Source of the DNA: Nitrospirota bacterium
GTDB lineage: Bacteria > Nitrospirota > UBA9217
Direction: 5' to 3'
NCBI GenBank assembly: GCA_037444505.1
Contig: JBBIMH010000017.1
Span: forward strand, 1,516 to 65,515
Length of the DNA stretch: 64,000 nt
Shown: positions 3,741 to 51,718 of the stretch, one piece after another
How the letters are laid out: each line of letters starts with the position of its first letter
How positions within the stretch are numbered: position 1 is the first letter of the stretch
The notes under the pieces: generated by a model
Told to the model about the DNA's origin: nothing
Seen by the model: the letters and a program-made list of their open reading frames with translations, nothing else
The model's database searches: none
Translations under genes and position numbers: made by a program

Positions 3741-3771
3741 TCTCTATTCTTTCCTTTGGGAGGCAGATGAC

Positions 3772-3858
3772 ATGTCCGATCTCGCCGTCTCAGTGCTGGT
3801 ACTCATCGGCATACTCTGCGCCGTGATAAGATTCAATCAAGGCATCGGATGGGGTTGA
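3772..3858 (+). CDS. Candidate 28-aa hydrophobic small protein
   Basis: MSDLAVSVLVLIGILCAVIRFNQGIGWG* with a GGGAGG RBS 8 nt upstream. It is below the ORF-track size cutoff and has no other support. Confidence 0.25.
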   Translation: MSDLAVSVLVLIGILCAVIRFNQGIGWG

Positions 3859-3936
3859 GGCGAGGAACCGGGTGGCCTCTGTGAAGGCGACGGACGCGAT
3901 CATCGCGACAAAGGCGAGGGGAAATAGTGCCGTTCT

Positions 3937-5058
3937 ATGAAACGAAATATACTGCTTGCATCGGCCGGAACAGTTGCGCTCGGCCTTTTTATCTCCATAT
4001 TCTGGGTAGCGCTCATTCTGAAAGATCTCCCGGATGTCTCCGTCCTTAAGCGCTATCGGCCTGCGGCCGCCGCCGAGGTCTTAGACAGCGAGGGCAGGCT
4101 GCTCGGCGTATTTTCAGACCGCTCATTCCGCATATGGGTCCCTCTTTCTTCCCTCTCGGATAATATAGTCAAGGCTGTTGTGACTGCAGAAGACGATACA
4201 TTCTTCGAGCACCAGGGCGTCAACGTCAAGGCGACGTGGGAGGCCTTTATACACGACGTAAAAAAGGGGAGGTTTGCTCGGGGAGGCAGTACGATCACGC
4301 AGCAGATGATCAAGAATGTCCTGCTTTCGCGCGAAAAGACCATATCGAGAAAGGTCAGGGAGGTCATACTCGCCTACCGTGCGGAGAATATACTCACTAA
4401 GCGCCAGATTCTCGAAATATACCTCAATGTGGTCGAATGGGGAGAGAACATATACGGCATTGAGGCGGCGAGCAGGTTCTATTTCGACAAACACGCCTCT
4501 GAACTCAATGTCTCCGAGGCGGCGCTGCTCGCAGGCATGCTGCCCAATCCGCGATATTTCAACCCATTCAAGCGTATGGATAAGGCACGTGAACGACAAC
4601 AGCGGGTCCTGTTCAACATGTTTCAGGCGAAACACCTGACCGAGGAGGAATATGAGGCCGCATTAAGCGAGGATATCCGTCTGAGACAGTGGACTTCGGA
4701 GAGGTTTGGCTTGTGGGGTGCGGAGGACTCGAACGGCAGACCGTGCCACATCAAGGCGCTGGAGCAGGTGCTTCTTTCTATATATGGAGAGCACGGGCTG
4801 TATCGCCAGGGTCTGAAGATAAGGACATCGATAGACAAGGAGCTGCAGGATAATTTCCACTCAGCCGCCCATCTGCCTGATGAGGTAGTCCTCGTCATGG
4901 ACAGGGGCGTGGTCAGGGCCATAGCGTGTACGGATGAAACTACCGTTGGTTCCGTGCTGGACCATCTTGGACCGCCGTATGATGGATATGAATACACGGT
5001 CGTTCCTGTGGAGTCGATAAAACCCGAAGATGTACTGCTCGGCGAGGGCGGGGGATAG
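3937..5058 (+). CDS. mtgA: Monofunctional peptidoglycan glycosyltransferase (GT51) with a C-terminal extension
   Basis: N-terminal TM helix and GT51 motifs (EDDTFFEHQG, GGSTITQQMIKN, RKVREV). No transpeptidase domain. An extra ~130 aa of unknown function follows the GT51 domain. Confidence 0.8.
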   Translation: MKRNILLASAGTVALGLFISIFWVALILKDLPDVSVLKRYRPAAAAEVLDSEGRLLGVFSDRSFRIWVPLSSLSDNIVKAVVTAEDDTFFEHQGVNVKATWEAFIHDVKKGRFARGGSTITQQMIKNVLLSREKTISRKVREVILAYRAENILTKRQILEIYLNVVEWGENIYGIEAASRFYFDKHASELNVSEAALLAGMLPNPRYFNPFKRMDKARERQQRVLFNMFQAKHLTEEEYEAALSEDIRLRQWTSERFGLWGAEDSNGRPCHIKALEQVLLSIYGEHGLYRQGLKIRTSIDKELQDNFHSAAHLPDEVVLVMDRGVVRAIACTDETTVGSVLDHLGPPYDGYEYTVVPVESIKPEDVLLGEGGG

Positions 5059-5078
5059 GACAACGCTCGTCCGCTGCA

Positions 5079-6044
5079 TCAAAATTCTATATTGGGCCTG
5101 AGTATGATCTGGAAGTCGTCGCTTTCTCTACCCGCGGCAAGGGGACCGGAGTACTTCCGGGCCGACTCCCACACGAATCCCATAGCGAATGTGAATGCCA
5201 TCTTCTTCTTTTCGAAAGGCCATTTCTTGTCCACGAAGAAATAGTGTCTGATGGCGCCGAACCCTCTGCGGTTCATATCAAAGGTATATTCGAATCCGCT
5301 GTTGTTGAGTATGGAAGACCGCTCGATTTTATAATCGAGCCTGCTCCTTCTGAGAGAAATATAAATGATGTCCGTGATGTAAGGGTTCTCATGGAGCTTT
5401 GCGCCAACCCGGAAGCTCCAGCTCAGCTTACGCACCGAAGACTTTCTGTCTCCTTTCACCTTCCACTCAAATTCTCGCCAGTCGTCCTTTATCATCTCGT
5501 TGTCCTTGATGTGATAGTTGCCTGCGCTCGCAAGAAATCCGGCATATCCCTTCCCTTTCATGTCGGCGTGTCCCGGGAGGTCGAAGTCGATCACATTGCC
5601 GACGAGCACCGACGCCGCCCAGGGTTCTTCAAATCCGGTCGTGATCGTCTTTACCCAATTGAAACTTCCGGATATTTCTGCATTGTCATAGAACCGCCTA
5701 TGCTCTCTCTTTATATACGTCCCCAGATAGGGTAGGGGGTTTATGCTGGCCTCGAGGACGAGATATCGTGGAAGCAACGACTGCGAAAACAATATTCTGT
5801 ATATCTCCGTTTCAGGCCGCTCTCCAAGGTGCCGGATCGGCTTATCCGTGAGCGAGAAGGTGACGCTCGCATTGGTGTAGTATGCGTCCAGCTCGAGATC
5901 GAACTCTATACGCCTCTGGATTTCATCATCGCTTGCGCCGGCCTCCGCGCCCGGAACGGCTGAGGGTGTAAAAATCATCATTGCGCAGAGCAGTGTCTGC
6001 GCAAGACGTGATAACAGCGCACGTGTACGCGCCGATTGGCACAT
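5079..6044 (-). CDS. Hypothetical outer-membrane beta-barrel protein
   Basis: Signal-peptide-like N-terminus (MCQSARTRALLSRLAQTLLCAMMIFTPSAVPGAEA), alternating beta-strand-like sequence, and a C-terminal ...ILRPNIEF ending in Phe. The start at 6044 was chosen because TATAAT (6051-6056) lies 6 nt upstream; the 6116 start would overlap smc. Confidence 0.6.
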   Translation of the reverse strand: MCQSARTRALLSRLAQTLLCAMMIFTPSAVPGAEAGASDDEIQRRIEFDLELDAYYTNASVTFSLTDKPIRHLGERPETEIYRILFSQSLLPRYLVLEASINPLPYLGTYIKREHRRFYDNAEISGSFNWVKTITTGFEEPWAASVLVGNVIDFDLPGHADMKGKGYAGFLASAGNYHIKDNEMIKDDWREFEWKVKGDRKSSVRKLSWSFRVGAKLHENPYITDIIYISLRRSRLDYKIERSSILNNSGFEYTFDMNRRGFGAIRHYFFVDKKWPFEKKKMAFTFAMGFVWESARKYSGPLAAGRESDDFQIILRPNIEF

Positions 6045-37273: not shown

Positions 37274-38644
37274 ATGGAGCAGGCGCGTGTATTGATAATG
37301 GACGACGAGGCAGGGGAGCGCCAGAGAATCGGCGGATACCTTGAAGCAAAGGGCCACGAGGTAGTGGGTGTAGGCTCTGTGGAGGAGGCGGTTGCGGCGA
37401 TACGCCGGGAGCGATTCGATGTCTTTCTTACGGACTGCAATATTCCGGGAGTGGATGCCCTGCGTACTTCTGAGGATGCGCGGAGGATAAATCCGGATAT
37501 GGCGGTGATCATCATGACCGCCTACGGGACCATAGAGACTGCTGTGAAGGCCATAAAGGCAGGGGCGTATGATTATCTCCCGAAACCCGTGGATCCCGAG
37601 CAGGTGGCGCTGCTTATAGAGCGCATTACCGAGCGCAGAAATCTCATAAGCGAGAACCGGCTTCTTAAGGAGCAGCTCAAGGACAGATACAAGTTCGAAG
37701 AGATAGTGAGCGCGAGCCGAGCAATGGAGGACGTCTTGAACGTTGTGGGCAGGGTGGCGGGCAGCAACGCCACCGTGCTTTTGCGTGGGGAGAGCGGAAC
37801 AGGAAAGGAGCTTATAGCAAAGGCCGTTCATTATCACAGCCCCAGGGCAGGCTATCCGCTCATAAAGGTGAACTGCGCCGCATTGCCGGAGACCTTGCTC
37901 GAGAGCGAGCTCTTCGGCCATGAAAAAGGCGCCTTTACCGGCGCGGCCTTTCGGCGGATAGGGAGATTCGAGGCGGCGGACAAAGGGACCATATTACTCG
38001 ACGAGATCGGTGATCTCACCTTAGGCATGCAGGTGAAACTTCTGCGCGTATTGCAGGAGAAGGAATTCGAAAGGCTGGGCGGAAACCATACTATAAGGGT
38101 GGACGTGCGCGTCATAGCGGCGACGAACAGGGACCTCGAAAAGGCGATGAAGGAAGGAAAATTCAGGGATGATCTGTACTATCGTCTCAATGTAGTGTCC
38201 GTGGTCATCCCGCCGCTACGCGAAAGGAAAGAAGACATACCGGCGCTCATCGACTATTTCATAAAGAAATACGGTGAAGAGAACAGCAAAAAGATATCGG
38301 GCCTGACGCTTGAGGCCAGGGACATGCTCATGCGCTACGACTACCCCGGAAATGTCAGGGAACTCGAGAATATAATAGAAAGGGCAGTCGTGCTTTCGAA
38401 GGGAGGGACCATCTCCGTCTCTGACCTGCCCATTCATATGCGGGTGCCTGCAAGAGATGTCTCGATGGATTTTAGGTCATCGGAAGGCAACCTCAACAAG
38501 ACGCTGGAGACCATAGAGCGCAGGCTCATACTCGAGGCGCTCAAAGAGACGGGCGGTGTCCAGACCCGGGCCGCAGAGAGGCTCGGCATCAGCGAGCGCG
38601 TGCTCAGATACAAGCTCAAGAAGTACAGGATAAAAGACCAGTAG
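37274..38644 (+). CDS. Sigma-54-dependent response regulator (NtrC family)
   Basis: Receiver domain (DDE...FLTD...KP), AAA+ domain with Walker A GESGTGKE and the GAFTGA loop, and a C-terminal Fis-type HTH. No adjacent histidine kinase. Confidence 0.95.
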   Translation: MEQARVLIMDDEAGERQRIGGYLEAKGHEVVGVGSVEEAVAAIRRERFDVFLTDCNIPGVDALRTSEDARRINPDMAVIIMTAYGTIETAVKAIKAGAYDYLPKPVDPEQVALLIERITERRNLISENRLLKEQLKDRYKFEEIVSASRAMEDVLNVVGRVAGSNATVLLRGESGTGKELIAKAVHYHSPRAGYPLIKVNCAALPETLLESELFGHEKGAFTGAAFRRIGRFEAADKGTILLDEIGDLTLGMQVKLLRVLQEKEFERLGGNHTIRVDVRVIAATNRDLEKAMKEGKFRDDLYYRLNVVSVVIPPLRERKEDIPALIDYFIKKYGEENSKKISGLTLEARDMLMRYDYPGNVRELENIIERAVVLSKGGTISVSDLPIHMRVPARDVSMDFRSSEGNLNKTLETIERRLILEALKETGGVQTRAAERLGISERVLRYKLKKYRIKDQ

Positions 38645-46543: not shown

Positions 46544-46977
46544 AAACCTCCTGCAACAGTATCAGTATCGTCAATAACAAACCACAAAGCCCTCAAAGAA
46601 GGACATGAATGAAGGAGCAAAACCCCTCTGTGTCCTCATTACCCATCTGCTACCTTTCATCACCGACTCCGTATGTTTTTGTCATGTATTTAACCTCATG
46701 AGGACACCGGCATTTTATTGAAATTCCTCTGTGCTGTCAGTGGTTTTATCTCTTTATTTCATGAAACGTTTGACAATACCCGGTATCACGACATGTCAAA
46801 TTCCATGTACTGAGCTTGTCTGATGCAACGCCTCGCTCAGTATTAGGCTCAATTATAAAGGATTTACCTTCATAGTCAACATCCGGTTGTGCCTTTCATG
46901 GACAATAGCTGAGCCGCCTGCGCGACCCCTGCCTTCGAGTTGCGATGCCGGGTTCTTAATGCCTGTATTCCCGCTAT

Positions 46978-46992
46978 TGACAAAATTTGTCA
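46978..46992. promoter_or_regulatory. Candidate enhancer-binding-protein site (UAS) for the pilA sigma-54 promoter
   Basis: The palindrome TGACA-AAATT-TGTCA lies about 75-90 bp upstream of the -24 element. A related pair, TTTGACA (46769-46775) and TGTCAAA (46794-46800), lies further upstream. Confidence 0.3.
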
Positions 46993-47065
46993 CCATGGCC
47001 TGACGTAATCGGCCCATTTCGACACTATCTCTAATATAACTATTCTAAATTAAATACTTTTTTTC

Positions 47066-47081
47066 TGGCATGCAATCTGCA
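47066..47081 (+). promoter_or_regulatory. Sigma-54 (-24/-12) promoter of pilA
   Basis: TGGCAT-GCAAT-CTGCA matches TGGCAC-N5-TTGCA with exact GG/GC spacing. It lies 154 nt upstream of the pilA ATG. Confidence 0.6.
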
Positions 47082-47234
47082 TAATAGACAGACGAAAAGC
47101 CCGGGGCATGGAAGGAGGTGAGACAACCCATAAGAAGCCCTGGGTCAAACACGCCATGGATAGGGTTCAAGACGGGTTCACTATACAAAAATAAACCGTG
47201 GCGGAAAATTTGATAATTTTTATGGGAGGATAAA

Positions 47235-47918
47235 ATGTTTAAGAAGATCAAAAACAAAAAAGGTTTCACACTCATCGAACTGCTCATCGTGATCGCCATC
47301 ATCGCGATCCTCGCAGCCATCGCCATCCCGCAGTTCTCAGCGTATCGGGTGAAGGCATATAATGCATCAGCACAGTCAGATCTAAGAAACACAGGTGTCT
47401 CACAGGCCGCTATGGGCCAGGATTTTTCCAGTTATGGAATTACCGAGTCAGGTACTTTACCAGGCTCCGGACTTAGCGGAACAGGAGTAGTTGATGGCGC
47501 TCCACTACTTGGACCACTTGGCGGCGCCACGACGGCAATACCGGGTGCTATGCTTACAACTAATGATTTGACGGAAGCCAATGCTGTCAGAGGCATTCCT
47601 ACCGGTGTTGGAAGCAGCGTGGGCATCTTAGCGCGTGTAAATGCTATTCAATCTTCAATTGGTTCAAATACTAATGTTATTACGGCGAATGCATATACTA
47701 TGGTAACAAAGCATACACTGGGCACGCAGGCATACGGAATGGATTCTGATACTACAGCGATGTTTGTATGCACAAACGAAACATCCGCATTTCTTGGCGC
47801 TCCTATCCAGAATGCTACTACCCCCGTTACAATTCCGGTCCCCACAAATGGTGTAAACGATTTTGGAAGTGTCGCGTGCAATGGTGATGCAGCTAATCCT
47901 AACTGGGTAGCCAGGTAA
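47235..47918 (+). CDS. pilA: Type IVa pilin
   Basis: Prepilin leader MFKKIKNKKG followed by FTLIELLIVIAIIAILAAIAIPQF (the class III signal), and a C-terminal Cys pair (FVCTNE...VACNG). GGGAGG RBS upstream. Confidence 0.92.
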   Translation: MFKKIKNKKGFTLIELLIVIAIIAILAAIAIPQFSAYRVKAYNASAQSDLRNTGVSQAAMGQDFSSYGITESGTLPGSGLSGTGVVDGAPLLGPLGGATTAIPGAMLTTNDLTEANAVRGIPTGVGSSVGILARVNAIQSSIGSNTNVITANAYTMVTKHTLGTQAYGMDSDTTAMFVCTNETSAFLGAPIQNATTPVTIPVPTNGVNDFGSVACNGDAANPNWVAR

Positions 47919-47951
47919 ATATGAAGTAATTTGATGGTCCTTTCAATAATG

Positions 47952-47989
47952 AAGAAGACAGGCCGGTTGAAGAGCTGGCCTGTCTTCTT
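47952..47989 (+). terminator. Stem-loop downstream of pilA (possible terminator/attenuator)
   Basis: 13-bp perfect stem AAGAAGACAGGCC / GGCCTGTCTTCTT with a 12-nt loop. No clear U-tract follows. Confidence 0.4.
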
Positions 47990-48174
47990 GAATGGGCTGT
48001 TGAGAAAATAGTACTTTCAGACAGAGATATAGCATGGGGCGGGCGCAGATAGGGTCAGCACACCGAAAGGCATGTGATGTATAAATTTTTATTTAGCTAA
48101 CATTCACTATGATATAAATATTTTTGGTTGATATGGCCACTGGTGTGGCGGACTGAACGGAAATATGAATCGAA

Positions 48175-49020
48175 ATGATGAAAGCTTGCAACCCTATGAA
48201 CGCACTTGATAATAAAAAAAACATCTTATCTATCGCACATATAACCATTAAAGGGAGTAGAATAGAAAAAATCTATTATCTGCTTTTTTTTACAGTAGTT
48301 ATCGTTTTATTATTAACTCCATATTTTGCATCAATGTCTCCCCGACAGGGCAAACAGGTGGCGCTCGATTTTATTCTTTCTACTCAGTCTTTCACAGGTC
48401 TTATTATAGCTACTTTCGTCGGCAGCGGACTTATAGCGCGGGATGTAGATAAAAAGGTTATCTACAGCGTAATTACCAAGTCGGTTTCTCGAAGCCAATA
48501 CGTTATAGGTAGATTCTTGGGGATAGCATTAATTCTTCTTTTAGCCATCATATTGATGTCTTTTTTTGGTATCCTATCATATTATGCTACCCTCTGGATG
48601 TTTATTACTTTAGGTGATGCACCGAATTGGTATGTATATTGGTTGAATGCAATTTTTTTATACCTAAAATTGTTGATTATTGTGGCTGTAGCTTTTTTGT
48701 TTTCATCTTTTTCCACTAGTACCATATTCCCTCTTGCAGTAACTATTGGAGTCTATATTGCCGGCGCATCTGCCATAAAGGTGAAGAGTTATCTCGAAAC
48801 TCTTTCGGGTGCTAATTGGGGCATTGGTTTTAAACTCTTAGTCAATTCAGCTTTTTATTTATTTCCAAATCTATCAGCTTTTGATCTGAAGGCTCAAGCA
48901 GCCTATGGCTTGTCTGTGAACAGTCTCAATCTTATATTTGTTGCACTATATGGTTTGCTTTATATTTCTGTAATGCTGTTTGTAACAGTAGTGATCTTTA
49001 ACAGACGGGACTTGATATGA
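48175..49020 (+). CDS. ABC-2-type transporter permease (AT-rich gene)
   Basis: About six TM helices in ABC-2-like organisation. Its stop overlaps the next start (ATGA at 49017-49020). Visibly AT-rich codon usage. The start is uncertain (48175 or 48196). Confidence 0.7.
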   Translation: MMKACNPMNALDNKKNILSIAHITIKGSRIEKIYYLLFFTVVIVLLLTPYFASMSPRQGKQVALDFILSTQSFTGLIIATFVGSGLIARDVDKKVIYSVITKSVSRSQYVIGRFLGIALILLLAIILMSFFGILSYYATLWMFITLGDAPNWYVYWLNAIFLYLKLLIIVAVAFLFSSFSTSTIFPLAVTIGVYIAGASAIKVKSYLETLSGANWGIGFKLLVNSAFYLFPNLSAFDLKAQAAYGLSVNSLNLIFVALYGLLYISVMLFVTVVIFNRRDLI

Positions 49021-49838
49021 AGTTATTTCTGAATATCATTGTGCTAATAACATACATTCTGCTTATCAATCCGGTGGAAAAATTCTCCAAATCTAAGATG
49101 ACTACAGAGAGCACAACTGCTGTTCCGGATGTTGAGGTCGTCGATATATTTGCACTGGAATTCAAAAATTTGGTGAGCGACATCCTTTTTTTTGATGCGA
49201 TTACATTTATAGGGGGCAAGAAAACGTTTCGATTAGAAATGCAAGAAGGCGAGCAACTTTATTCCTTGCTGAACGCGTCATCTTTTCTTAATCCTTATAA
49301 TGTGGATCCATACTACCTCGGGCAATCCATTTTAACATGGGAAACAAAGATGTATGACCGTGCAAATATCTTATTGAAGCGTGGTATGCAGTATAGGAAC
49401 AAAGAATGGGTGTTCCCTTTTTTTATTGCATATAACTATTTTTATTTTATGAACGACACTCTGCGCGGTGCGGAGTACATGAAAGTTGCCATTGAAAGGC
49501 CTGGCTCTCCTACTCTGGTGCTTACTACATTGGCGTCGCGGCTTTATTATCGTTCCGGACGGACAGAGGTAGGGATTTTGCTTTTAAAGGATGCAGAGGC
49601 GCATGAGGCAGATGAAGGTGTAAAGAAAATTTACAGGAAAAGAATTAAGGCAATGGAAGGGGTTTTGGTGATAGAGAAAGCAATTGAGGTGTATAAAAAT
49701 AAATATTCGAGGAAACCAGCTAATATTGATATGCTTATTAAAGCAGGTTTATTAAAGAGCCGGCCGCATGATCCTTATGGCGGACAATATTACATAGATA
49801 AAGAAGGAAATGTCAAAAGCACGAGTGATTTTAGGTAG
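49017..49838 (+). CDS. Membrane-anchored hypothetical protein with GspG-like C-terminal motif
   Basis: N-terminal TM helix and a helical-repeat middle region. The C-terminus IEKAIEVYKNKYSRKPANIDMLIKAGLLKSRPHDPYGGQYYID resembles the T2SS major pseudopilin G domain pattern (Y...G.YP..L..L...YL...P.DPWG..Y.Y). Confidence 0.6.
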   Translation: MKLFLNIIVLITYILLINPVEKFSKSKMTTESTTAVPDVEVVDIFALEFKNLVSDILFFDAITFIGGKKTFRLEMQEGEQLYSLLNASSFLNPYNVDPYYLGQSILTWETKMYDRANILLKRGMQYRNKEWVFPFFIAYNYFYFMNDTLRGAEYMKVAIERPGSPTLVLTTLASRLYYRSGRTEVGILLLKDAEAHEADEGVKKIYRKRIKAMEGVLVIEKAIEVYKNKYSRKPANIDMLIKAGLLKSRPHDPYGGQYYIDKEGNVKSTSDFR

Positions 49839-49888
49839 CGTGCATATTACATAGGTATTTTGTCTAAAAGAACAAGGAAAGACTGACA

Positions 49889-50839
49889 ATGCATGTATTA
49901 AGGATTGAGAAGTTGACAAAGATTTATAAACTGGCGGGGCACACATTTACCGCCCTGTCTGCTTTGGACTTAAGCATCGAACAAGGCGAGGTGTTCGGCT
50001 TTCTCGGGCCGAACGGAGCGGGCAAAACTACGACAATAAAAATTCTTGTCAATCTGATATTCCCTACAAGCGGTAAGGCTTGGATATTTGGTGATGATTG
50101 CTCTCTGCCTGAAGCGAGGAGAAGAATAGGTTTCTTGCCTGAGATGCCAATGTTTTACGATTATCTTACATTAGAGGAATTACTGCGGTTCGGGGGTGAA
50201 ACGGCGGGTTTAAGTAAGGCGCTTATAAAAACAAGGATAGATCATCTACTCGTTCTGCTCGACATGGAGCGGGCGCGGAATTTGAGGATAAGGAAGTTTT
50301 CAAAGGGCATGCAGCAGCGGGCCGGTCTGGCCTATGCGCTTATGGGTGACCCCGATGTCTTGATCCTGGATGAGCCCATGAGCGGGCTCGATCCTATAGG
50401 CAGGAAGGATTTCGTTGATCTTATTAGAAAGCTCAAGGCCGAAGGCAAAACGATTTTCTTCAGCTCGCATGTGCTTTCAGATATTGAGAACCTATGCGAC
50501 CGCGTCGGAATCCTGGTCAAAGGTGAGCTTAAAAAGGTAGGCAATGTCTCGGAGCTGCTGAGAGCCGAGGATGGATTCCTGGTCAGGGTAAGCGGATTGG
50601 ATGGTGGAGGAAAGGAATATTTAGAGCAACTGGGCGTCCATGTCTCGGTCGATGGAAATGCGCTCTCCCTCCGTGTCACAAGGGATAAGGTCATGGATGT
50701 CATGGATATTATTAAGGCACGAAAGGCTTCGATCGCTTCGATCGATACCATGCGCAAGTCTCTCGAAGATATATTTATGGAAGTAGTTCAACAGAATCAA
50801 TCATCAGTCAGTCCTACCCCCTCTTCTCCTCATGCCTGA
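49889..50839 (+). CDS. ABC transporter ATP-binding protein
   Basis: Walker A GPNGAGKTT, signature FSKGMQQR and Walker B VLILDEP, plus a C-terminal accessory domain. Confidence 0.92.
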   Translation: MHVLRIEKLTKIYKLAGHTFTALSALDLSIEQGEVFGFLGPNGAGKTTTIKILVNLIFPTSGKAWIFGDDCSLPEARRRIGFLPEMPMFYDYLTLEELLRFGGETAGLSKALIKTRIDHLLVLLDMERARNLRIRKFSKGMQQRAGLAYALMGDPDVLILDEPMSGLDPIGRKDFVDLIRKLKAEGKTIFFSSHVLSDIENLCDRVGILVKGELKKVGNVSELLRAEDGFLVRVSGLDGGGKEYLEQLGVHVSVDGNALSLRVTRDKVMDVMDIIKARKASIASIDTMRKSLEDIFMEVVQQNQSSVSPTPSSPHA

Positions 50840-51134: not shown

Positions 51135-51163
51135 TTGAGTGTGATATGAGGGAGGTGATTTTC

Positions 51164-51718
51164 ATGGGGGCGACAGCGACTGCTGGTGGCAGGCGATATA
51201 CCTATGCTGATTATGAAAAACTTCCAGAGGGCGCCCCGTACCAGCTGATTGGAGGAGAACTCGTCATGACGCCCGCACCGACGCCTTATCATCAGAGGAT
51301 TTTAAGGAAGATCGGATATGCGCTCGTAACGTTTATTGAGGCAAAGGGCCTGGGAGAAATTCTGTACGCTCCTATAGATGTCTATCTTTCAGAGACTGAA
51401 ACCTATCAGCCGGATATAATATTCATTTCAAAGGAGAGGGCAGGTATAATAGGTGAAAAAAAGATAGAGGGCGCTCCCGATCTGGTAGTAGAAATACTCT
51501 CTCCTGCAACCGCCTATTATGATTTGCGGCAGAAGATGCATGTGTATGAAGGCTTCGGGGTGAGGGAATACTGGATCGTTGATCCGATTGAAAAGGCAGT
51601 TGATATCTATGAAAATCCGGGGCGGGAATTCAGGCTGTTCGGCGCAGCACGTGAAACCGGAGTAATCCGTTCGAAGCTGCTTTCAGGCTTTGAGATAGAT
51701 TTGGCTACGATATTCTGA
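51164..51718 (+). CDS. Uma2 family endonuclease (DUF820, PD-(D/E)xK-like)
   Basis: YTYADYEKLPEGAPYQLIGGELVMTPAPTPYHQ...PDIIFIS...APDLVVEILSP...D...K...Y...GVREYWIVDP is the typical Uma2 pattern. GGGAGG RBS 8 nt before ATG 51164. Confidence 0.88.
   Translation: MGATATAGGRRYTYADYEKLPEGAPYQLIGGELVMTPAPTPYHQRILRKIGYALVTFIEAKGLGEILYAPIDVYLSETETYQPDIIFISKERAGIIGEKKIEGAPDLVVEILSPATAYYDLRQKMHVYEGFGVREYWIVDPIEKAVDIYENPGREFRLFGAARETGVIRSKLLSGFEIDLATIF

Follow-up and report, generated by a model that had tools for sequence, protein, structure and literature searches.

The ATP-binding cassette (ABC) system PilGHI is reportedly essential for the pili of Myxococcus and is said to have been known as such since 1998. 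In M. xanthus, PilG, PilH, and PilI (MXAN_5782–5780) are located downstream of pilA according to the passages of PMC3724824 and PMC3546991 that cite Wu et al. 1998; MXAN_5780–5783 (pilA-G-H-I) form one operon, in which PilG bears the annotation 'ABC transporter accessory factor' (PMC3546991). Deletions of pilG, pilH, and pilI are grouped with other non-piliated pil deletions lacking type IV pili, and the exopolysaccharide (EPS) defect that they cause is suppressed by a pilB allele, as is that of a pilA deletion (PMC3724824). In a Geobacter xapD mutant, PilA is undetectable and EPS is ~50% lower (bioRxiv 10.1101/114900). The locus described here lies in a 64-kb window (64,000 nucleotides of contig JBBIMH010000017.1 from an uncultured Nitrospirota bacterium of a subsurface metagenome) and comprises four genes on the same (+) strand: pilA (47235–47918) and, downstream of it, a trio (48175–50839) encoding a permease, a 273-aa middle protein, and an ABC ATPase. 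The best explanation of this trio as a whole, to which we assign a probability of roughly 70%, is that it is a PilI–PilG–PilH system serving specifically the major type IV pilin, whose gene lies just upstream.

All three open reading frames (ORFs) proposed by a first-pass annotation of the window, made from the sequence alone, are present in the ORF list, at 48175–49020 (+) for the PilI-type ABC-2 permease, 49017–49838 (+) for the PilG-type accessory (middle) protein, and 49889–50839 (+) for the PilH-type ATPase of 316 aa. The ATGA that it had noted, in which the permease stop TGA and the ATG of the middle gene overlap, can be read in the sequence, and translation of the accessory gene is predicted to be coupled to that of the permease through this overlap. 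For the permease, both the end of the ORF and the identity of the product hold, but the start at 48175 probably does not: the N termini of homologues align ~7–22 codons further in, the true start probably lies near 48196–48240, and the 281-aa product of the full ORF is not the called protein.

The components correspond to those of PilGHI. The permease belongs to ABC2_membrane_2 (E = 4e-7, above the Pfam cut-off), the ATPase matches ABC_tran (E = 5e-26) together with DrrA1-3_C in Pfam and is DrrA/GldA-like, and the middle protein has no family match in Pfam or NCBIfam. Walker A (GPNGAGKT), the signature, Walker B (LILDEP), and the H-loop are all intact in the ATPase. An ATPase, an ABC2_membrane_2 permease, and a domain-less accessory protein are also what the published gene tables list, with the same Pfam assignments: in the supplementary tables of Sharma et al. 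2018 (PMC6060248), myxobacteria and Bacteriovorax have PilA–PilG ('hypothetical', no domain)–PilH (ABC_tran)–PilI (ABC2_membrane_2), Pelobacter carbinolicus has PilH–PilI–PilG–PilD, and Geobacter sulfurreducens has PilA, two small genes, and then PilI–PilG–PilH, which is the order of the window. Position agrees as well: the trio comes directly after pilA, and relatives of the middle protein occupy the PilG position in the pil clusters of Myxococcota, Desulfuromonadales, and Geobacter. The proposal that this is a pilus-associated ABC module like pilGHI and xap, with an adaptor ending in a pseudopilin-like domain, is thus borne out by synteny, profile searches, and published gene tables alike.

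The first-pass annotation had named pilGHI and xap as two examples, and published labels together with gene position indicate that they are one system. By counting consecutive accessions from pilA (GSU1496), from which the GSU numbering of the Geobacter trio was deduced, G. sulfurreducens PilH appears to be GSU1501, that is, xapD. The identity of XapD and PilH is implicit in the published supplement (PMC6060248) and, as far as the literature was searched, is not discussed by Geobacter workers. The window resembles G. sulfurreducens GSU1499–GSU1501 in that a permease, an accessory protein, and an ATPase follow, in this order, a pilin whose N terminus is ~88% identical; in G. sulfurreducens, however, the pilin is split into PilA-N and PilA-C, an additional small gene precedes the trio, and polysaccharide genes follow it. 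With M. xanthus PilGHI, the window shares the three component types and their place after pilA. The M. xanthus order, however, is G-H-I, whereas that of the window is I-G-H, with the module isolated from other pil genes, and the closest Myxococcota members are only ~25%–30% identical to the family member of the window.

Linkage between pilA and the ABC genes, as suggested by the first-pass annotation, is conserved well beyond these groups. A synteny scan of one genome per GTDB species, with a 14-sequence alignment as query, yielded 52 loci, and five more came from contig look-ups; together they represent Nitrospirota, Nitrospinota, Geobacteraceae and other Desulfuromonadales, Desulfobacterales, Myxococcota, Bdellovibrionota, Aquificota, Hydrothermota, Betaproteobacteria, and Thermithiobacillus, about ten phyla in all. 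A same-strand prepilin gene lies within 4.5 kb upstream of the trio at 42 of the 57 loci; at two, the pilin gene is slightly further off or on the opposite strand, three have no pilin gene, and for ten the contig is too short to tell. Among untruncated loci, an upstream same-strand prepilin gene is therefore found in 42/47, and a pilin gene is missing from 3/47. Wherever the contig permits, the accessory gene is accompanied by homologues of the window permease and/or ATPase. Three gene orders occur—ATPase-permease-accessory (33 loci), permease-accessory-ATPase as in the window (11 loci), and the Myxococcota type accessory-ATPase-permease (four loci)—and all of them keep the trio together; at no fewer than 23 loci, the accessory gene overlaps the permease gene by 4 nt.

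In Desulfuromonadales and Myxococcota, the trio is embedded in the core pil cluster, with pilA on one side and pilD on the other. Malonomonas rubra has the order pilR-pilA-pilAC-Wzy_C-ATPase-permease-accessory-pilD-pilM..pilQ, while a Myxococcota metagenome-assembled genome (MAG) carries three copies of pilA followed by accessory-ATPase-permease with pilD adjacent and, on the other side of the trio, pilB/T/C/S/R within ~10 kb, an arrangement that matches M. xanthus. The order typical of Desulfuromonadales, pilR-pilA(short)-pilAC-Wzy_C-ATPase-permease-accessory, was also observed on a contig labelled as a Pedobacter sp. MAG (L017, JBFWJC010000004.1), whose binning or label may be wrong. The trio has a single universal neighbour, the pilin gene. 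A gene for a large membrane protein, Wzy_C (O-antigen-ligase-like) or TMEM260-like, accompanies pilA and the trio in Desulfuromonadales (L020, L022–L025, L027, L029, and L030) and Myxococcota (L045, L050, L056, and L057) and is limited to these two groups; in Desulfuromonadales, L045, and L050 it separates pilA from the trio, and in L056 and L057 it stands beyond pilA. Its product is a candidate pilin O-glycosylation enzyme.

The product of pilA is a 227-aa type IVa prepilin (N_methyl, Pfam, E = 2e-10); among solved structures, it matches Geobacter PilA-N best (7tgg, E = 3e-21), followed by M. xanthus PilA (8tj2, E = 1e-6). Over the first ~42 residues of the mature protein, identity to the short Geobacter PilA-N 'geopilin' (7tgg) is ~88%. 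The C-terminal domain, of ~170 residues, is rich in Gly, Thr, and Ser, contains two Cys near its end, and resembles that of the long Myxococcus pilins. The pilin is a hybrid type with a geopilin-like N terminus and a Myxococcus-like long C-terminal domain.

An exhaustive profile search for the family of the middle protein returned 2657 cluster representatives at E ≤ 1e-3 and 1335 at E ≤ 1e-10, nearly all ~270–300 aa in length and named, if at all, 'TPR repeat protein' or 'hypothetical'; the orphan status suggested by a word-indexed search, which had found six relatives, was thereby overturned. Two longer relatives (P0096 and P0144) carry MoCoBD (molybdopterin-binding) or radical SAM fragments after a truncated PilG-like part; these are unrelated enzyme fragments, and the proteins are most likely chimeras of metagenome assembly or gene calling rather than true domain fusions. 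An AlphaFold2 model built from 76 diverse sequences, which superseded an earlier 7-sequence model with a mean predicted local distance difference test score (pLDDT) of 64, reached pLDDT 95.1 and a predicted template-modelling (TM) score of 0.86. It places a helix at residues 2–30, ten further helices up to residue 195, a 31-residue helix at 200–230, and a short helix at 237–242, followed by two short strands at 258–260 and 266–268. The architecture, predicted with confidence, comprises a membrane anchor, TPR-like repeats, and a small pseudopilin-head-like end.

The hydrophobic N-terminal helix (residues 2–30; 49020–49106, +) is evident both in the model and in the hydrophobicity of the family: 75/76 members have a single hydrophobic segment from about residue 6, after a short basic n-region free of acidic residues. 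This N terminus looks like a signal anchor rather than a prepilin leader. The first-pass annotation had remarked that a leader was missing, and, consistent with this, the N terminus (MKLFLNIIVLITYILLINPVEKF) contains no cleavage motif (G-F-T-L-x-E) and the protein has no N_methyl or TIGR02532 match in Pfam or NCBIfam. The TPR-like helical repeat domain (residues 39–195; 49131–49601, +) is seen in the model and by Foldseek, and some relatives match Pfam TPR families. Foldseek against the PDB returned TPR proteins exclusively, all weak (E ≥ 5e-3; PilW 2vq2, MamA, and consensus TPRs), because the TPR part dominates the model. A PilF/PilW-like TPR pilotin was considered and rejected: such pilotins are outer-membrane lipoproteins with a lipobox Cys and TPR repeats only, whereas the middle protein has no lipobox, an anchor that appears uncleaved, and an additional C-terminal domain, and the match to PilW 2vq2 is a weak, generic TPR one (E = 6e-3, TM 0.35–0.42).

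The C-terminal domain (residues 200–268; 49614–49820, +) had been likened from its sequence to the type II secretion pseudopilin GspG, and this likeness is recovered by sequence profiles. When the last 73 residues are searched alone, T2SSG is the sole Pfam match (E = 0.064; 13.8 bits, where the cut-off is 21). A 42-member profile of the C terminus, compared with all PDB sequences, places GspG first (3g20, E = 8e-5; 29jd, E = 1e-4), with six more GspG chains and ComGC as weaker matches, and 18/42 members individually match T2SSG (best 1.7e-4) compared with 5/42 for the next family, although all of these T2SSG matches fall under the Pfam gathering score. The alignment with GspG spans the soluble portion of the long helix and the loop and extends to the first strand, with an insertion of 13–16 residues in GspG. 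The motif P-x-DPYGG is the best-conserved part of the family, P250 being invariant and P253 and G255 nearly so among 76 sequences. With GspG (T2SSG; 3g20, 1t92, 3fu1), the ~70 C-terminal residues thus share the helix, the loop, and the strand pattern P-x-DP(W/Y)G-x-x-Y; they differ in having a loop shorter by ~13–16 residues, two strands, and neither the third strand nor the calcium site, and in forming the end of a TPR protein that has no prepilin leader and no hydrophobic alpha1-N. The domain is best described as a remote, truncated relative of the pseudopilin head. Its score lies under the curated threshold of the GspG class (T2SSG, TIGR01710), whose leader with G/FTLxE is also absent. The C-terminal part is predicted to be periplasmic, on the basis of the signal-anchor-like N terminus and the location of the GspG head.

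Clues to mechanism come from the permease and the ATPase. Against solved structures, the profile of the permease family finds NosY alone (7o0y_D, E = 2e-7, over its full length), while the ATPase finds the nucleotide-binding domains of eukaryotic ABCA proteins first and then, as its closest bacterial relative, NosF (E = 1e-47). NosFY carries a periplasmic partner docked on the permease and matures an extracytoplasmic enzyme rather than pumping a solute. The similarity to NosDFY (7o0y) is remote, and the partners are unlike: the NosDFY partner is the beta-helix protein NosD and the client a copper enzyme, whereas here the partner is a membrane-anchored TPR and pilin-head-like protein and the client would be pilin. 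There was no NosD or nos-family match among the flanking ORFs scanned, and NosDFY is best seen as a putative mechanistic analogue of the trio rather than a member of the same class. With NosFY as its closest relative of known structure, the trio looks more like a mechanotransducer than an exporter.

Building on the observed gene linkage and domain assignments, we infer every step of the following mechanism, which draws on the NosFY analogy, the two protein-binding-type modules of PilG, and the loss of pilin in the Geobacter mutant. In the inner membrane, PilI2–PilH2 would form an ABC core like that of NosFY. PilG would be anchored there by its N-terminal helix, with the TPR scaffold and the leaderless pseudopilin-head-like domain facing the periplasm. 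ATP hydrolysis by PilH would be converted into movement that passes via PilI to PilG, which would bind membrane-embedded pilin, or the platform that handles it, and thereby hold pilin in a stable and assembly-competent state. The system would accordingly act as a chaperone or mechanotransducer and not in the export of small solutes. A more specific version, in which PilG is a pilin mimic whose GspG-like head, borne on a TPR arm, docks pilins or the platform while PilI–PilH uses ATP to load, extract, or protect pilins, is put forward tentatively and is itself rather doubtful. The literature on type IV pili that was searched mentions PilGHI only in passing, with no mechanism proposal found. As far as these searches show, three points are new: the predicted domain architecture of PilG, the apparent NosFY relationship, and the breadth of pilin linkage outside the former Deltaproteobacteria.

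Glycan exporters of the Wzm/Wzt type are among the ABC-2 systems, and the trio might accordingly export a glycan, either an undecaprenyl-linked sugar for pilin glycosylation or, as the Geobacter 'Xap' label implies, a matrix polysaccharide; linkage to pilA would then reflect modification of pilin or coupling of pilus and matrix rather than the handling of pilin. The Wzy_C/TMEM260-like gene beside pilA and the trio in Desulfuromonadales and Myxococcota speaks for such a function, as do the glycosyltransferase genes located after the trio in both L057 and G. sulfurreducens. No glycosyltransferase or ligase gene, however, adjoins the module in the window (where none was seen among the genes scanned around it), in its closest relatives, or in most Nitrospirota and Desulfobacterales loci. 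The components also fit poorly, since the permease is NosY-like and matches ABC2_membrane_2 only, not the Wzm family, the C terminus of the ATPase is DrrA1-3_C-like and not Wzt_C, and the accessory protein has protein-binding-type domains (TPR and pilin-head-like) and no sugar-binding domain. G. sulfurreducens, moreover, has its own separate pair of Wzm (ABC2_membrane) and Wzt (ABC_tran plus Wzt_C) downstream in the same cluster (PMC6060248). The lowered EPS of the xapD mutant, and the description of XapD as an EPS exporter by Geobacter workers (PMC5585712, PMC4974642), speak for glycan export; in M. xanthus, however, loss of pili in itself reduces EPS (PMC3724824), and the xapD defect could therefore be indirect. 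Glycan export is judged unlikely on balance, and the matrix exporter is the weaker reading of the module.

Two further explanations fare worse. An ordinary ABC-2 efflux or resistance pump of the DrrA, NatA, or lantibiotic-immunity type could stand beside pilA by chance, with an unrelated TPR protein encoded between its subunits, and the top NCBIfam models for the ATPase are indeed the generic DrrA (TIGR01188 drrA, E = 9e-69), GldA, and lantibiotic-protection models, all under their curated cut-offs, in a window with no other pil gene nearby. Chance adjacency is effectively refuted, however, because 42/47 untruncated loci have the prepilin gene, across distant phyla and three gene orders; the accessory gene, too, is never missing from the unit and in many cases overlaps the gene for the permease. 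Such a pump is accordingly considered most improbable. The C-terminal motif and the GspG profile matches could also mean that the middle protein is a true pseudopilin or minor pilin and becomes part of a type II secretion or type IV filament, yet this is scarcely credible: the absence of a leader, of alpha1-N with its conserved Glu5-type helix, and of the third strand tells against pseudopilin status, as do an N terminus that is a plain hydrophobic anchor, the ~160 residues of TPR repeats that separate it from the GspG-like part, and the reduction of that part to two strands.

Several observations weigh against a PilI–PilG–PilH system dedicated to the upstream pilin, in addition to the published description of XapD as an exporter. 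The window scan found no other pilus genes within ~10 kb of the module. The link to MXAN_5782 is indirect, running through gene position in Myxococcota MAGs and the homology assignment of another group. The likeness to GspG is limited to a helix and two strands and comes from sequence profiles, because Foldseek gave weak TPR matches alone; the charges flanking the PilG anchor are not decisive for its orientation; and both the contact of PilG with pilin and the PilG–PilI complex have been inferred.

The first-pass annotation had described the permease and middle genes as AT-rich and possibly acquired horizontally. Against 48 non-overlapping ORFs of the window outside the island (GC 0.544 ± 0.022; GC at third codon positions [GC3] 0.658 ± 0.061), both are indeed AT-rich, the permease with GC 0.359 and GC3 0.33 and the middle gene with GC 0.391 and GC3 0.41, but low GC is not limited to these two: pilA (GC 0.48, GC3 0.42), the ATPase gene (0.48, 0.53), and the downstream Uma2 gene (0.48, 0.48) are also low. 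Four other hydrophobic proteins in the window have GC3 of 0.64–0.76, and the amino acid composition of membrane proteins is therefore not the cause of the dip. As the Uma2 gene shares the low GC3, the compositional island extends from ~46.6 to 51.7 kb. At 46–48 related loci, the mean GC deficit relative to the surroundings is only 3.8 points for the permease gene and 2.4 points for the accessory gene, and the drop of 14–18 points is thus specific to the lineage of the window.

In the closest relatives, the GC drop at the module is 10 points, the accessory protein is 71%–73% and the products of the other three genes 75%–77% identical to those of the window, and the order pilA-permease-accessory-ATPase is kept between entirely different flanking genes. 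Given the GC3 anomaly and the same four genes between different flanks, with which the suggestion of horizontal acquisition is consistent, pilA and the trio were probably acquired as one unit, and not recently, from a donor of lower GC. In the closest relative (L001), the gene before pilA (3752–5827, +) encodes a 691-aa multihaem-cytochrome-like protein with faint Pfam matches and is itself preceded by a gene for an NHL-repeat protein; neither is found at the corresponding position in the window. In P. aeruginosa, pilin-specific accessory genes (tfpO and the tfpW–Z group) travel with pilA alleles. The likeness to the window lies in pilin-dedicated genes just downstream of pilA that move as a compositionally distinct unit; the Pseudomonas aeruginosa genes, however, are unrelated, encode glycosyltransferases or small accessory proteins, and include no ABC system.

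Upstream of pilA, ~600 bp of non-coding sequence (46620–47234) is AT-rich (GC 0.43–0.45) and contains, ~150 bp before the gene, a possible sigma-54 (−24/−12) promoter, TGGCATGCAATCTGCA (47066–47081, +). In Myxococcus and Geobacter, pilA is sigma-54- and PilR-dependent. Within the 64 kb of the window, the site, TGGCAT-N5-CTGCA, is the only one to fit TGGCAY-N5-TTGCW with one mismatch; chance alone would yield ~3.9 such sites, and the match is therefore statistically indistinguishable from chance and no more than suggestive. A sigma-54-dependent, PilR-like response regulator (37274–38644, +; E = 3e-136 against Malonomonas rubra PilR) is encoded 9 kb upstream of pilA, with no PilS-like kinase gene seen beside it. 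Just after the pilA stop, RNA folding places a 16-bp GC-rich hairpin at 47953–47988 (+). The fold of RNA 47915–48010 has a free energy of −41.1 kcal/mol (z = −7.8), with none of 200 shuffles as stable; the hairpin was not reported by a simple terminator scan, and an Rfam scan of 45.5–52.5 kb matched nothing. It is likely a terminator or attenuator that separates pilA from the ABC genes. Directly 3′ of the trio lies the Uma2-family gene (51146–51718, +; PF05685, E = 1e-32), which encodes a putative endonuclease.

Should PilG indeed be such a pilin mimic, a second ATP-driven machine for handling pilin would exist beside PilB/PilC and be widespread in Desulfobacterota, Myxococcota, Nitrospirota, Nitrospinota, and Aquificota. 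The predicted architecture of PilG and its almost invariant P-x-DPYGG motif offer specific residues for mutation. On the pilin-mimic reading, Geobacter XapD would be an ATPase of pilin biogenesis, and the EPS and electron-transfer phenotypes of the mutant would be secondary to the loss of pilin. The apparent identity of XapD with PilH is relevant to a long-standing argument about xapD phenotypes, namely whether they arise from a conductive polysaccharide matrix or from pilus loss. For the Nitrospirota bacterium itself, three poorly named genes gain a correct functional annotation, with evidence that a pilin and its ABC partner pass together from genome to genome.

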